Shown one piece after another: positions 2,751 through 9,219 of a stretch of DNA of 32,000 nucleotides. Where the stretch lies: positions 1 through 32,000 of the forward strand of contig JAUWKS010000021.1 in the NCBI GenBank assembly GCA_030614005.1, written 5' to 3'. The notes beneath the pieces were generated by a model. It worked only from the letters and a program-made list of their open reading frames with translations, was not told the DNA's origin and did no database searches. The stretch is from Candidatus Heimdallarchaeota archaeon. GTDB taxonomy: Archaea > Asgardarchaeota > Heimdallarchaeia > JABLTI01. The stretch's first letter is position 1; each line of letters opens with the position of its first letter. The position numbers and the translations under genes are program-made.

Positions 2751-4634
2751 ATGCTACCAATTTTGAAAACCTTGGAATTCTCTAAAATTGTTCCCTTAAG
2801 TGAAAGATCTGTTGAAAAAATTAATTTTCGTGAAGGAATCAACAAATTCCTAGCTGAAAATGGATCTGGAAAAACCACTCTAACAGATTTAATCGAGCAC
2901 TCTCTTGTAAGAGACGCTCATGCTTTTGCGTGGAATGTCTTTTCAAAGAAAAGAGTGGATCGTACAGCTTATGTTAAATCTGAATGGGTTTTTGGCACCG
3001 AAAAAAATTCTATCACTCATGAGTTAACTGATGCAGGTGCAAGAACACGTGTAACTTCCTCAAAATTCTCAAACAAAGCACATACAAAAGATATGTATTC
3101 AGATTTCATTTATTCAAAAACAAACTTGTCTTTGGAGCAAATTCAGAAATTATTTGAAGGAGTATATTATAAACGAGAGAATGATTTGAATCTTTTAGGA
3201 ACACCAGGTAAAGAGAGTTTGATGGATTTCTTTGAGCTATTGAATAAAGCAATTAGAATGGATACTCCAACAACAATTAAACTTCGCAACCAAATTGGTG
3301 AGATAAAACGTCAAATCGATTTAAGAAAAAATAATAAACGCAAGATCGAAGCAACTCTTGAAAAGATGGAAATAATTTTTGCTGGTGCTGATTCTTCAGC
3401 TGATGCTTTAGATAATATTGGTTCTAGAAAAGGTGATTTAGAGCGAAACAATACTCAGTTAAAAGAAGATGCAGAAAAATCACGTAAAGCATCATTAAAT
3501 CTTGAACAAGAGGATCAAGAAATTCTTAATAAGTTAGACAAAGAACAAGAAACATTACTTGAAATTAGAACAAAGCTTGATTCCTTGAAATCTAATAGAT
3601 ATGCTTTACAATCGCATCTAAATAATCTCAATAACGAACTTGATGGTTTCAAAAAACTAGGGAATGTTGATTATTCTTCCATCAAAGAAGCTTGGGAAAA
3701 GAAACAAACCTGTGAGCTTTGTGGAAGCTCAATTTTCAATCATTGGGATGAACGAGTGAAGGAAGGTTGTCCTTCTTGTGGTACATTTTGGAAAAATATT
3801 CCTAAAGCCATCCAAGAATCTATTTCTAATGGGCAAAAAAATATCAGCAAAGAAGCTCGTGACATTCAAACAGAAATTGAGAAAAATGAACTTGAGCTCA
3901 GAACTACTCAAGAAGACATTGAGAAATTAGAGAAAGATGAGAAAAAAATTAATGATTGTTTGAAAAGTTTACGAGAGAAATTAGCTACTAACAATTCTAG
4001 AAGAAGAAAACTTCAATCACAGAATGATGAAATCAATCTGAAAATACAAAGAATTGGTGTTGAACTTGGTAGTTTATCAGCTCAAGAAAAAATGGTAAAT
4101 CAAGATGAAAGTATTGGTTTGCTGAAAGTAAATCTTGAAAAAATCAATGCTGAATTAGAGAATTATAATGCTCAATTGGATAGATATGAACGCGAACTTC
4201 CTGAACAAGAAGAATTACAAGAAATTCTCAACAATTTTACTCGTTCCACAAAAGAAATTTTTGGTTACAGTATGTTAGCTGATACAGATACAAGAGTTAT
4301 AACCATATCAAAAGATGATTCTGAAAGAGATTTCGAAGCTCTGTCATGGTCTGAAAGGTACTTCATTGATGTTGTATTTAGAATATCAGTTTTCAATTTC
4401 CTTATAGAAAACGGTATAATGAAAAAGGGATTCCTTATTCTTGATTCACCAGAAGCTGCTCTTGATCCACATAGATTAGATTTACTTGCGAATTTGATCA
4501 ATAAACACAAGAGCACAATCACTTTCACAATCGCTACTCGGGTAGCCAAATTTTATAATCAATTAGAGGGAAATCCGTTGGAGATTCGAAAACAAACTCA
4601 AACAAGTTTATTCGATTTCATCAGTACCAGTTGA
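2751..4634 (+). CDS. SMC/Rad50-like coiled-coil ATPase with degenerate catalytic motifs
   Basis: Walker A 'AENGSGKTT', long coiled coils flanking two CxxC motifs (CELC 3711-3722, CPSC 3768-3779), signature-like 'LSWSE', and Walker B/D-loop 'LILDSPEAALD'. Confidence 0.85.
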   Translation: MLPILKTLEFSKIVPLSERSVEKINFREGINKFLAENGSGKTTLTDLIEHSLVRDAHAFAWNVFSKKRVDRTAYVKSEWVFGTEKNSITHELTDAGARTRVTSSKFSNKAHTKDMYSDFIYSKTNLSLEQIQKLFEGVYYKRENDLNLLGTPGKESLMDFFELLNKAIRMDTPTTIKLRNQIGEIKRQIDLRKNNKRKIEATLEKMEIIFAGADSSADALDNIGSRKGDLERNNTQLKEDAEKSRKASLNLEQEDQEILNKLDKEQETLLEIRTKLDSLKSNRYALQSHLNNLNNELDGFKKLGNVDYSSIKEAWEKKQTCELCGSSIFNHWDERVKEGCPSCGTFWKNIPKAIQESISNGQKNISKEARDIQTEIEKNELELRTTQEDIEKLEKDEKKINDCLKSLREKLATNNSRRRKLQSQNDEINLKIQRIGVELGSLSAQEKMVNQDESIGLLKVNLEKINAELENYNAQLDRYERELPEQEELQEILNNFTRSTKEIFGYSMLADTDTRVITISKDDSERDFEALSWSERYFIDVVFRISVFNFLIENGIMKKGFLILDSPEAALDPHRLDLLANLINKHKSTITFTIATRVAKFYNQLEGNPLEIRKQTQTSLFDFISTS

Positions 4635-6079: not shown

Positions 6080-6171
6080 AATGTCGTTATCATCCCAATA
6101 CTTTAAAAATAAAAGTTATGCAAACTAGTTTAATAAGGATTTTTTTGTACAGAGAAGCGAAGTGTGAAGCT

Positions 6172-6759
6172 ATGAGTGATGATGAAGAAATTAAGACAAA
6201 AAATCTCTTGAGAGGAATCAAATCAATCTTAAAAAGAAGAAAATACAAAATTGCCTCTGAAGAACGTTTTGAAAATTATATTGATATTCAATGTGTATTA
6301 GATACTGACGAAAGCCAAGAGATACTTGCTAGAATTTCCTTAGAGGATAAAGTTGGAGTAGCTGTTCTACGTGAATATGTTAAAAAATTAGAAGATATAG
6401 AGGCAGAGAAAGGAAAAGAAAATATTAAAGGATTATTAGTAGCTTCCAATCGATTTACTCATTATGCTCGGCGCGAATCGAAGGAGAAGAATATTTGGAT
6501 AATTACTAGCAAAGATCCAAGATTCGATATCTTTACTCATGAACTAGTTCCAGAACATGTAATTTGTCCAGATGAAGAACTAAAAGACTTATTACTCAAA
6601 TTTAATCTTGAAAGAAGGCAATTACCTAAAATTCTTATCAGCGATCCAGCAGTAAAAGCTATTGGTGCTAAACCAGGGCAAGTTGTCAAAATTTTCCGAG
6701 AAAGTGCTATTTCAAGTGAAACTATTGCTTATCGTCTTGTTGTAAGCAGAGCAAATTAG
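6172..6759 (+). CDS. rpo5: RNA polymerase subunit Rpo5 (RpoH) with RPB5/Mrr-like N-terminal domain
   Basis: C-terminal 'HELVPEH...QLPKILISDPAVKAIGAKPGQVVKIFRES...AYRLVV' is diagnostic. About 115 aa of N-terminal extension contains 'DKVGVAVLREYVKKL'. ORF opens at 6118; I prefer ATG 6172. Confidence 0.9.
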   Translation: MSDDEEIKTKNLLRGIKSILKRRKYKIASEERFENYIDIQCVLDTDESQEILARISLEDKVGVAVLREYVKKLEDIEAEKGKENIKGLLVASNRFTHYARRESKEKNIWIITSKDPRFDIFTHELVPEHVICPDEELKDLLLKFNLERRQLPKILISDPAVKAIGAKPGQVVKIFRESAISSETIAYRLVVSRAN

Positions 6760-7062: not shown

Positions 7063-7242
7063 ATGCCAACAAAAATTGACTTATCAAAGTGCTCAAAATG
7101 CGGTACATGTATAGAAGTCTGTCCAGAAGAAGTTTATGACGAAGCAGATGATGGTGCACCAATTAACGCTCGCAATGACAACTGCACTGATTGCGGTATT
7201 TGTGTTGAAGAGTGCCCAGAAGAATGCATTGAATTAGTCTAA
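7063..7242 (+). CDS. 2[4Fe-4S] dicluster ferredoxin (59 aa, absent from the ORF track)
   Basis: Hand translation: MPTKIDLSKCSKCGTCIEVCPEEVYDEADDGAPINARNDNCTDCGICVEECPEECIELV*. It has two CxxCxxCxxxCP motifs, GAGG SD at 7051-7054 and TTTAAATA at 7003-7010. Confidence 0.95.
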   Translation: MPTKIDLSKCSKCGTCIEVCPEEVYDEADDGAPINARNDNCTDCGICVEECPEECIELV

Positions 7243-7257
7243 GCTCTTTAGAATAGA

Positions 7258-7318
7258 TATCTTTAATTTTTTATTATTTCACTTTCTTTTTATTATTTTA
7301 TTTTTCTTATTTTTCAAT
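7258..7318 (+). terminator. T-rich putative terminator after ferredoxin
   Basis: About 60 nt of almost pure T/A with multiple oligo-T runs directly after the stop. Confidence 0.5.
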
Positions 7319-7409
7319 AGTCTAATTATTCAAAGAATATGCACCAACCAAAAGCTTTTGAAATATCTCTACACAGTTATGATATCCTTTGATAATGAGT
7401 TGAAATTAG

Positions 7410-8318
7410 ATGGAAAATGAGTCTCCCTTCTCCAGTAGTAATACAATCAAACTTTCAAACAATGCTCTAAAAGAATTACTTGAACCCATACCAGAGAAAG
7501 AGCTAATAAATAAAATTGCTAATATCAAAGGTTGGAAAACAAAACGAGTGCCATTAACAGCAAATCAATCAAAAAGCGAATATTTCCTACTGCATGTAGG
7601 AGCAAATATATCCCTATCAGTTTTCCGTGAATTACGAATTATTCGAGAACATACTCTAATTTCAAAATTTAAGTGGAATGTATTCAATTGGGATAAAAGT
7701 TTAGTGCGATATTTTCCTGACAAACTAGAGAAGAAAATTGAAGATGTCATTCAAAATTTGACTACTATGGTCAACTTAGATATTTTATTAGTTGATGAAG
7801 AAACAAAAACGATTTTCCTTTTATTAGAGCAATGGCAAAATCAAATTGTATCTGATACCTTTTTATCAAAAGTTGAAACGAATATTCCAAAATATTTTCG
7901 AGCATATATGTGCTTATCGAAAAAAATGCTCTTGGTTGAAAATAAATCAGAGCAAGCTACAAAGGAATTTGTCAAAATCATTGAACAATCCTTTAATGTT
8001 TCAACAGAAAAAATTCGAATCAACGCAATGATTATACGGGAGTTTGTCAAAAATAATCCTGAAAACTTAACAAGATTAGTTATTCGTGTCCCTCAAGAAG
8101 TAGCAGGGTTTGGAGGGTTATCAGAACTAACGTTACAAGGTACTGATGTTATTGTGGGTTCTAAAGGATTAATGGATCGTCATGAAACCTCACCAATAAA
8201 CGTTGGACCTTGGTCTGGAGTTTCAAATGCTAACACTAGTCTCGACGTAGGAAAACCTGCAAAAGTTTCCACAATTGGAGAAGCAATTAAGCTTTTTGAT
8301 CTTTTGAAAGAAATGTGA
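7410..8318 (+). CDS. Hypothetical protein, candidate CENP-N/Chl4-like
   Basis: 302-aa ORF, clearly coding. The CENP-N/Chl4 resemblance is by eye only (see findings). Confidence 0.45.
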   Translation: MENESPFSSSNTIKLSNNALKELLEPIPEKELINKIANIKGWKTKRVPLTANQSKSEYFLLHVGANISLSVFRELRIIREHTLISKFKWNVFNWDKSLVRYFPDKLEKKIEDVIQNLTTMVNLDILLVDEETKTIFLLLEQWQNQIVSDTFLSKVETNIPKYFRAYMCLSKKMLLVENKSEQATKEFVKIIEQSFNVSTEKIRINAMIIREFVKNNPENLTRLVIRVPQEVAGFGGLSELTLQGTDVIVGSKGLMDRHETSPINVGPWSGVSNANTSLDVGKPAKVSTIGEAIKLFDLLKEM

Positions 8319-8484
8319 GGAACTAATTTGTCGAAATAGAAACTCTTTTTTAGTTTAGTGAGAATAATTGCACCAAAAGTAGTATTATTATTTGGTAATA
8401 ACTACATAATGTATAGATTAAAAACATTTAATTATAGAATAGAAACTTATCAAAAATATCTTAGTGTTAAGGTGGCAAATTAAT

Positions 8485-9219
8485 TTGAGCAACAATCTAG
8501 ACAATTTATTAAGCGATATTTACTCTTCAGATGGTCAAAGTCAAGGCGTAAAAGAATTAGCTATGTTAATCAACAATCTATCAAACTTACTTCTAAAATC
8601 AATTAGCCAATTGGAAAGTAGAGTGTTAAAACTTGAACAATCTTCAAGAGGAGGAGCAGTAGCTAGCAGTCCTTTAGCTCCAACTACAACTCCAGCACCC
8701 AGACCAAAAGCGGCATCACCATTTAAACCAGCAACACCAGTAAAGAGAACTCCACCACCACCTCCCCAACAGAGAGCTGCCCCTGTAACAGCCCCTGCAA
8801 AAGGAGATGGACCAAGTTCAGCATCTCAAGCAGCTTCTATGCTAGGTGCAACACTTAAACCAGCACCTAAGAAATCTCCAACTGCAAGCTCAGCAGCAAA
8901 TGGATCAGGCCCTTCATTCCTAACAGGTGTAGTGAATCCAAATGCAAGGCAAGCAGCACCAACATCAACAAGTGGAGGAGTTACCATAGATGCAGCAGCA
9001 CCAACACCAACAAGTGGAGGTATTGCAGGTCCCAGAGGCGGATTTAAAGGAGAGTTAGCTGAAAAACTTGCAAGGAGAAGAGCAAAAGTTCAGCAACAAC
9101 TTGAAGATGACTTTGATGCTCCAGAAGAAGTGATAGTTGAAGAAGAGGGCCCAAGTAGTGAATTAAAAACTGATTTGGAAGATGAACTTCGAAATGCATT
9201 TTCAAAACTAAAAGGTTAA
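8485..9219 (+). CDS. Coiled-coil, Pro/Ala-rich protein with WH2/VASP-FAB-like C-terminal helix and acidic tail
   Basis: AGGTGG (8470-8475) precedes TTG 8485. Contains an N-terminal heptad helix, PPPPP (8752-8766), 'GGFKGELAEKLARRRAKV' (9037-9090), an acidic stretch and a terminal helix. Confidence 0.55.
   Translation: MSNNLDNLLSDIYSSDGQSQGVKELAMLINNLSNLLLKSISQLESRVLKLEQSSRGGAVASSPLAPTTTPAPRPKAASPFKPATPVKRTPPPPPQQRAAPVTAPAKGDGPSSASQAASMLGATLKPAPKKSPTASSAANGSGPSFLTGVVNPNARQAAPTSTSGGVTIDAAAPTPTSGGIAGPRGGFKGELAEKLARRRAKVQQQLEDDFDAPEEVIVEEEGPSSELKTDLEDELRNAFSKLKG
8953..9021 (+). repeat. Short intragenic direct repeat (AAPT[S/P]TSGG x2)
   Basis: gcagcaccaacatcaacaagtggagg at 8953 and gcagcaccaacaccaacaagtggagg at 8995 differ at one base. 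Confidence 0.75.

Follow-up and report, generated by a model that had tools for sequence, protein, structure and literature searches.

A gene at positions 7410–8318 (+ strand) of the 32,000-nucleotide stretch of Candidatus Heimdallarchaeota contig JAUWKS010000021.1 analysed here (the window) encodes a 302-residue protein that, judging from predicted structures, very probably belongs to the RdgC/CENP-L/CENP-N fold superfamily. We favour, at somewhat better than even chances, the composite reading that it represents a new family of this superfamily and would work in some lineages as a DNA clamp coupled to a GTPase. An earlier note on this DNA, made by eye from the sequence, had taken the protein for a candidate archaeal homologue of the kinetochore protein CENP-N/Chl4 and a possible prokaryotic precursor of an inner-kinetochore subunit; the predicted models give strong support to kinship with CENP-N/L at the level of the fold, while the proposed ancestry is plausible but stops short of being demonstrated.

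The origin of the kinetochore is among the least resolved parts of eukaryogenesis, and with this gene there is a candidate, open to testing, for the prokaryotic source of one part of it. The superfamily is known, and the likeness of CENP-L/N to RdgC and TBP has been established (PMC4080450; 10.1101/2022.01.06.475204); what the models would add is an Asgard family within it, with a CENP-N-type front end and a putative GTPase partner. No CENP-N/L-like or RdgC-like Asgard family was found in the literature searched, which included the main text of recent structure-based surveys of Asgard proteomes.

Predicted fold and family

Two structural models were used. Model 1 is an AlphaFold2 (AF2) prediction for the window protein made from a 30-sequence alignment, with a predicted local distance difference test score (pLDDT) of 82.4 and a predicted template modelling score (pTM) of 0.80; model 2 is that of a family member 22% identical to the window protein, from another family (pLDDT 91.5, pTM 0.88). 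The gene and the parts of its predicted product are the following.

7410–8318, + strand: gene for the Asgard protein (P0001) with a predicted CENP-L/N–RdgC-type fold; open reading frame, homologue family, dN/dS 0.09, AF2 model
7443–7664, + strand: N-terminal helical domain, residues ~12–85 (helices 17–24, 29–40, 55–62 and 69–82); model 1
7665–8087, + strand: curved beta-sheet core with packing helices, residues ~86–226; model 1
8076–8213, + strand: Gly-rich block, the most conserved of the family, residues 223–268; 55-sequence alignment A2
8274–8312, + strand: C-terminal amphipathic helix, residues 289–301 in model 1 and 277–287 in model 2; models 1 and 2

The N-terminal helical domain, with conserved L24, P26, I27, K55 and R73, corresponds in the alignments to the pyrin-type domain at the N terminus of CENP-N and packs on the beta-sheet core, a TBP-like CENP-L/N-homology (LN-homology) unit that is also common to RdgC; the layout found is of the CENP-N type. 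In model 1 the core is made of strands 88–94, 121–129, 134–149, 154–168 and 173–177 and a helix at 181–195; the KWNVF motif that the earlier note had picked out at 7671–7685 corresponds to residues 88–92. The Gly-rich block that follows has a motif of roughly L..x..E..GF.GL..I...G.DV..G..GL..RHE......GPW, and its part GTDV...GPW, correctly located in the note at 8139–8213, covers residues 244–268. Among the aligned sequences G233, G244 and G266 are invariant, G236, V247, G250, L254 and R257 are conserved in at least 90%, R257 itself being kept in 98%, and position 259 (E259) is acidic in 92%. Model 1 is less confident in this block (pLDDT 56–81) and model 2 is confident.

When model 1 was compared with the PDB using Foldseek, the top 26 matches were all Iml3/CENP-L, CENP-N/Chl4 or RdgC (E 1e-7 to 2e-4), and the next family appeared at E>4e-3. 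The same three families were returned from the Swiss-Prot AlphaFold models, with CENP-N aligning from residue 17 and CENP-L and RdgC from residues 79–87; CENP-N chains aligned from model residue 10–18, whereas RdgC, CENP-L and Iml3 did so only from 76–87. Residues 17–216 were paired with residues 6–210 of human CENP-N at 15% identity, and the collinear alignment extended to residue 263, paired with CENP-N residue 315. The claim that matches to CENP-N fall in the same order along the length thus held structurally but not at the sequence level, and the Foldseek register is presumably the one implied by the first three parallels of the earlier note. With model 2 the top 23 PDB matches were all CENP-N, CENP-L, Chl4 or Iml3, followed by RdgC at 1.5e-2, and VIA gave 10.3 for CENP-L, 9.7 for Iml3, 9.0 for RdgC and 7.9 for CENP-N. 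The predicted fold, with its TBP-like LN-homology sheet, its helices and a C-terminal alpha/beta part, matched the superfamily well above unrelated folds, and the models suggest an architecture in which the nucleosome- and DNA-binding half of CENP-N is placed on a full CENP-L/RdgC-like body that ends in a small conserved C-terminal domain.

Outside the PDB, the best match among the AlphaFold Database (AFDB) clusters was an Asgard relative (E 2.6e-21). Uncharacterised proteins of 270–700 residues from bacteria, phages or other viruses and Thermoproteota matched residues ~13–302, N-domain included, in the AFDB clusters and the ESM Atlas, and some of these fold relatives include WYL, OmpR-type, DUF4868 (KwaB) or ResIII/DEAD helicase regions. 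Evidently the fold family has many members, which in prokaryotes are mostly associated with DNA. One AFDB cluster hit, A0A1Q9NNC3, is an uncharacterised protein of 651 residues that matches the model over roughly its first 330 (E 4.9e-11, query residues 17–301); possibly it represents a fold-level paralogue within the Asgard archaea.

Known sequence families gave a different picture. The protein had no match in Pfam, NCBIfam, PADLOC or PHROGs, and neither it nor the family profiles A1 and A2 matched any PDB sequence (phmmer, hmmsearch), as the earlier note had anticipated in seeing no obvious prokaryotic family motif; the sole matches by the sequence routes were at chance level (the TLR6 TIR domain, a nanobody and HPPD). 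A language-model feature search produced a weak CENP-N lead (rank 72, score 0.80), and none of the 55 family members matched Pfam DUF4868.

The open reading frame, which starts with ATG, is a real gene under purifying selection, since about 40 homologue clusters share nearly one length and the ratio of nonsynonymous to synonymous substitution rates (dN/dS) against the closest homologue is 0.09. These clusters came from a word-indexed search and are 46–98% identical to the protein, nearly all 302–304 residues long and without Pfam domains, and their named sources are almost all Asgard metagenome-assembled genomes, with names that put the window organism itself in 'Candidatus Heimdallarchaeota'; a repeat of this search with the broad profile A2 added nothing to the family. 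An exhaustive search of 1.84 billion representatives with a hidden Markov model (HMM) returned just 63 proteins at E<=1e-3, most of 250–320 residues. Ten of their clusters were looked up and nine were named, the names being Helarchaeota, Hodarchaeales or 'Promethearchaeota' and a single bacterial label, perhaps from a mis-binned contig. As far as sequence searches reach, the family is Asgard-only and previously undescribed, with lengths of ~255–340 residues and a median isoelectric point (pI) of 9.1.

Surveyed with the 55-sequence profile, the family was present in 66 of the 68 other genomes (at least 80% complete) of the window's class, the one held closest to eukaryotes, and always as one copy; it was also found in ten further Asgard families. 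The window genome has a single copy, and 92 Asgard genomes have one family member each. In one distant member of 377 residues (P0059) the region after the C-terminal part barely passes the Pfam threshold for a PCI domain (22.4 bits, the cutoff being 22), which may mean that the protein is fused to a PCI/winged-helix scaffold domain.

GTPase neighbour, function and ancestry

Neighbourhoods of 8–14 kb around the gene were collected from 38 non-redundant loci and their open reading frames called. In 13 of these loci the gene directly upstream encodes a Ras-family GTPase of 176–200 residues (PF00071, E 1e-43 to 1e-56) with intact G1–G5 motifs, catalytic Gln included, and no second Ras-like gene was found anywhere in the loci. 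In one clade, represented by six loci, the GTPase gene is co-directional and abutting (gap −8 to 45 nt); the remaining seven loci, spread over three further clades, have the two genes in divergent orientation, 48–343 nt apart. A maximum-likelihood tree of the family places the four GTPase-linked clades more than one substitution per site apart, the co-directional clade being sister to the window's own. In one of the seven divergent loci (L040, genome G302, 1.4 Mb) the neighbour GTPase is split at 3361–3869 into two overlapping reading-frame fragments, representing a frameshift, a pseudogene or an assembly error.

When one co-directional pair was co-folded together with GTP and Mg, the score was 0.37 (runs 0.37, 0.53 and 0.37), against 0.00 for the best of three controls, with at least 86% contact agreement between runs and a partner pLDDT of at least 78. 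Of 80 solved complexes, 58 reached the mark for such predictions, as did two of 110 mismatched pairs, and scores of 0.60 or below were obtained by only seven of those 80 complexes and by both passing mismatches, counts that hold only roughly here because our runs used their own alignments and ligands. The co-fold lends the pairing weak support, and we consider it fairly likely that the clamp-like protein is functionally coupled to the GTPase in the lineages where the two genes are adjacent.

Other genes recur beside the family too. In three other families a same-strand gene upstream encodes a protein of 130–161 residues (L018 5645–6037, L028 5655–6047, L026 6271–6756 and L033 6135–6539) whose Zn-ribbon and winged-helix (HTH_24) matches are weak and fall below the cutoff; the gene lies 15 nt upstream in L026, overlaps the target gene in L033 and is ~470 nt away in L018 and L028. 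Here this protein might take the place of the GTPase as a partner. Where the GTPase is divergent, a PDCD5-type dsDNA_bind protein (PF01984) is encoded 1–3 kb upstream, and L015 and L025 also have an E2F/DP-type winged-helix protein (PF02319) there; the genes are at 4144–4512 and 5743–6201 in L015, with equivalents in L025, L017, L021 and L032. These neighbours could reflect either conserved synteny or function.

The most likely function is that of a DNA-binding, clamp-like protein, GTPase-coupled in some lineages. It would grip double-stranded DNA on the concave basic face of its sheet, as every characterised member of the superfamily does (the RdgC ring, the CENP-L/N vault), and would probably act as a homodimer, since there is a single gene per genome. 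The basic pI, the Zn-ribbon and winged-helix neighbour and the fusion of fold relatives to WYL, OmpR-type and helicase domains all hint in the same direction, and by analogy we regard DNA binding as an even prospect. In many lineages the protein probably works with the Ras/Rab-like GTPase encoded directly upstream, and the most economical reading of this link would be a GTP-dependent switch on DNA loading or partner recruitment. The conserved C-terminal block, with R257 and E259, is likeliest to serve as a partner-binding or regulatory surface; because the collinear Foldseek alignment pairs residue 263 with CENP-N residue 315, the block would, loosely, fall in the dimerisation domain of CENP-N, the docking site of CENP-C and CENP-M in the human constitutive centromere-associated network (CCAN).

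The same neighbour could be read another way, with the protein as an effector or regulator of the Ras/Rab-like GTPase (a GTPase-activating protein, a guanine-nucleotide exchange factor or a scaffold) in membrane or cytoskeletal processes. Its TBP-like sheet would then bind proteins instead of DNA, in the manner of the platform of adaptin appendage domains. Matches to TBP and to adaptin-appendage platform domains span residues 76–204 only. We consider this explanation improbable.

How the clamp reading relates to the kinetochore is a separate matter, and several results weigh against a close tie. The parallels with CENP-N and Chl4 that the earlier note had drawn by eye gained no statistical support: the Pfam CENP-N HMM (PF05238) found nothing at E<=10 in the whole window genome, none of the 55 family members matched Pfam CENP-N, CENP-L (PF13092) or RdgC (PF04381) at the same threshold, and neither the N-domain nor the C-terminal Gly-rich block, used as sub-profiles, retrieved a CENP-N or Chl4 chain among PDB sequences (E<=10). 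The Pfam RdgC HMM was likewise empty in 200 Asgard genomes at E<=0.01, the E. coli control being found. Predicted structure, at 8–15% identity, is the one thing that carries the homology, and within it the top rank switches between CENP-N and CENP-L from model 1 to model 2. Uncharacterised AFDB clusters reached E ~1e-8 compared with ~3e-7 for CENP-L/N, and in the Atlas the template modelling (TM) scores were 0.53–0.61 for uncharacterised proteins compared with 0.54–0.59 for CENP-L/N; since prokaryotic proteins combining the N-helical domain with an RdgC-like body score as high as CENP-L/N or higher, the Asgard family is, on these models, not demonstrably their nearest relative. The profile also picked up no member in the two largest of the sampled Asgard families (0/118 and 0/71). 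As for the GTPase, the window's own family has none adjacent, Ras-like GTPases number 17–70 per Asgard genome (3–6 Mb), and the neighbour GTPases, which do not match Pfam CENP-M, are ~40% identical across clades with reciprocal best hits that, because of these many paralogues, are not clean, so that their orthology is not established.

A rival reading makes the family one more branch of the large prokaryotic RdgC-like superfamily (RdgC, YejK, RexA, KwaB/DUF4868, GAPS4b and helicase-fused proteins) with no special descent to CENP-L/N, its DNA binding serving recombination or the nucleoid and its CENP-N-like N-domain being widespread or convergent. Bacterial, viral and Thermoproteota proteins cover residues 13–302 at scores equal to or above those of CENP-L/N, RdgC lies just 1–3 Z units under the kinetochore proteins, and RdgC-like proteins with extra N- and C-terminal domains exist in Bacillus and Halobacteria (PMC11390915). 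However, the PDB matches place CENP-L/N above RdgC in both models; the family is confined to Asgard archaea by sequence and near-universal in the class considered nearest to eukaryotes, the RdgC profile retrieves nothing from Asgard genomes, and the GTPase neighbour parallels CENP-M. We hold a purely RdgC-like branch to be rather unlikely.

Direct ancestry of CENP-L/N by the clamp family is possible but on balance doubtful. A stronger version, in which the GTPase and the single-copy CENP-L/N-like clamp are the direct ancestor of the CENP-M and CENP-L/N core of the inner kinetochore, we judge unlikely. In that scenario a GTPase-regulated, DNA-gripping module for handling chromosomes would predate eukaryotes, in their archaeal ancestor, and the clamp gene would have duplicated into CENP-L and CENP-N while the GTPase decayed to a pseudo-GTPase. 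The adjacency of the GTPase and the parallel with CENP-M raise interest in such an origin, as analogies, and do not prove it. If the tie to CENP-L/N fails, what is left is still an unannotated, near-universal Asgard family with a likely role in chromatin or on DNA and a putative GTPase partner.

The gene in its window

The window DNA has a GC content of ~32%, and the neighbours of the gene there are housekeeping genes, with no defence island. Those closest to it, with the intergenic regions, are the following.

6118–6759, + strand: long Rpb5-type RNA polymerase subunit
7063–7242: 2x[4Fe-4S] ferredoxin
7243–7409, + strand: upstream intergenic region, with a long T-rich run after the ferredoxin gene and A/T-rich sequence before the start; sequence reading
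8319–8463, + strand: downstream intergenic region, with a terminator-like oligo-T run ~25 nt past the stop, then the Pro/Ala-rich neighbour; sequence reading
8464–9219, + strand: Pro/Ala-rich protein of 251 residues

Because a T-rich run lies 5' and an oligo-T run 3' of it, the gene looks monocistronic and separately transcribed in the window genome. Further neighbours in the window are ThiI-like, AIR-synthase-related, Pus10 and aIF5B-type GTPase genes, and HemL lies in conserved housekeeping synteny. These surroundings bear on the idea that the protein is a component of anti-virus defence, like its fold relatives KwaB, RexA and GAPS4b. Several fold relatives are indeed defence proteins or ResIII/DEAD helicase fusions, but the PADLOC, PHROGs and DUF4868 searches were empty, and a single-copy gene, near-universal in its class and set in housekeeping synteny (Rpb5, HemL, ThiI-like, Pus10, aIF5B), is unlike the patchy content of defence islands; a defence role is accordingly very improbable.

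The Rpb5/RpoH homologue at 6118–6759 has 213 residues. Ahead of its Rpb5 C-terminal domain (E 2.7e-27) come ~130 residues that form an N-terminal domain weakly similar to restriction-endonuclease-like folds (NA-iREase1, Mrr_cat), and its architecture is the eukaryote-like long form and not the short archaeal RpoH. The product of 8464–9219 has no Pfam family. Its N-terminal segment resembles a coiled coil, ~130 residues in its middle are of low complexity and rich in Pro, Ala, Ser and Thr (with a PPPPP stretch), and a charged helix lies at its C terminus; the position of its gene next to the target gene is kept only within the window's own family (the window, L013 and L011). A 627-residue protein encoded at 2751–4634 (+ strand) may be an SMC/Rad50-like ATPase: its orthologue in L013/L014, syntenic within the family, has a precomputed SMC_N match, while the window copy had no match in hmmscan at E<=1e-5. 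The synteny of the SMC-like, target and Pro-rich genes is confined to the window's own family and does not form a broader conserved unit.

Comparison with known systems

Compared with CENP-N and Chl4 of the CCAN (PF05238), the Asgard protein lacks a profile match and yet has, in the models, the same arrangement of an N-helical and an LN-homology domain. CENP-N heterodimerises with the paralogous CENP-L via its C-terminal domain, whereas Asgard genomes have one member and no paralogue was found in them at the sequence level; a fold-level CENP-L-like paralogue may be present, with A0A1Q9NNC3 as the candidate. To our knowledge archaea have no CENP-A. CENP-L and Iml3 (PF13092), which again gave no sequence match, differ in that the Asgard protein has a larger, CENP-N-like N-domain and no gene for a heterodimer partner.

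RdgC (PF04381), the recombination-associated DNA-binding protein of bacteria, forms a homodimeric closed ring around double-stranded DNA, and a single-copy Asgard gene is compatible with a homodimer. The Asgard body is shorter, however (~220 residues compared with 300), and the protein has in addition the N-terminal domain of helices and, towards the C terminus, a Gly-rich motif specific to the family. A similar layout is seen in the 'RdgC histone' operon proteins of Bacillus and Halobacteria (Schwab et al. 2024, PMC11390915), in which an RdgC fold likewise carries additional small domains at both ends. Two loci had precomputed Pfam calls, and in neither was a histone gene or a transmembrane partner called beside the Asgard gene, the other loci not having been scanned for histone folds.

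The GTPase finds its counterpart in CENP-M, a small Ras/Rab-fold pseudo-GTPase tied to the CENP-L/N module, which branches at the base of Rab/Ras (PMC4080450) and in human CCAN binds near the CENP-LN dimerisation domains (10.1101/2022.01.06.475204). The Asgard neighbour, by contrast, is a canonical and, by its motifs, apparently active GTPase, and we treat the parallel as analogy, not homology.

In the analysis of Tromer et al., CENP-L/N had no prokaryotic homologue by sequence and shared only the generic TBP-like fold (PMC6601020). A single DNA duplex is gripped by the pseudo-symmetric vault of CENP-L/N, and the homodimeric ring of RdgC surrounds DNA; CENP-L/N have been proposed to descend from an RdgC-related, DNA-binding homodimeric singleton (10.1101/2022.01.06.475204). 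The Asgard family would fit this proposed singleton in three respects, being a core gene of Heimdallarchaeia-type Asgards whose product appears to set a CENP-N-type two-domain front on a CENP-L/RdgC-type body, with a Rab/Ras-like GTPase as a recurrent neighbour.
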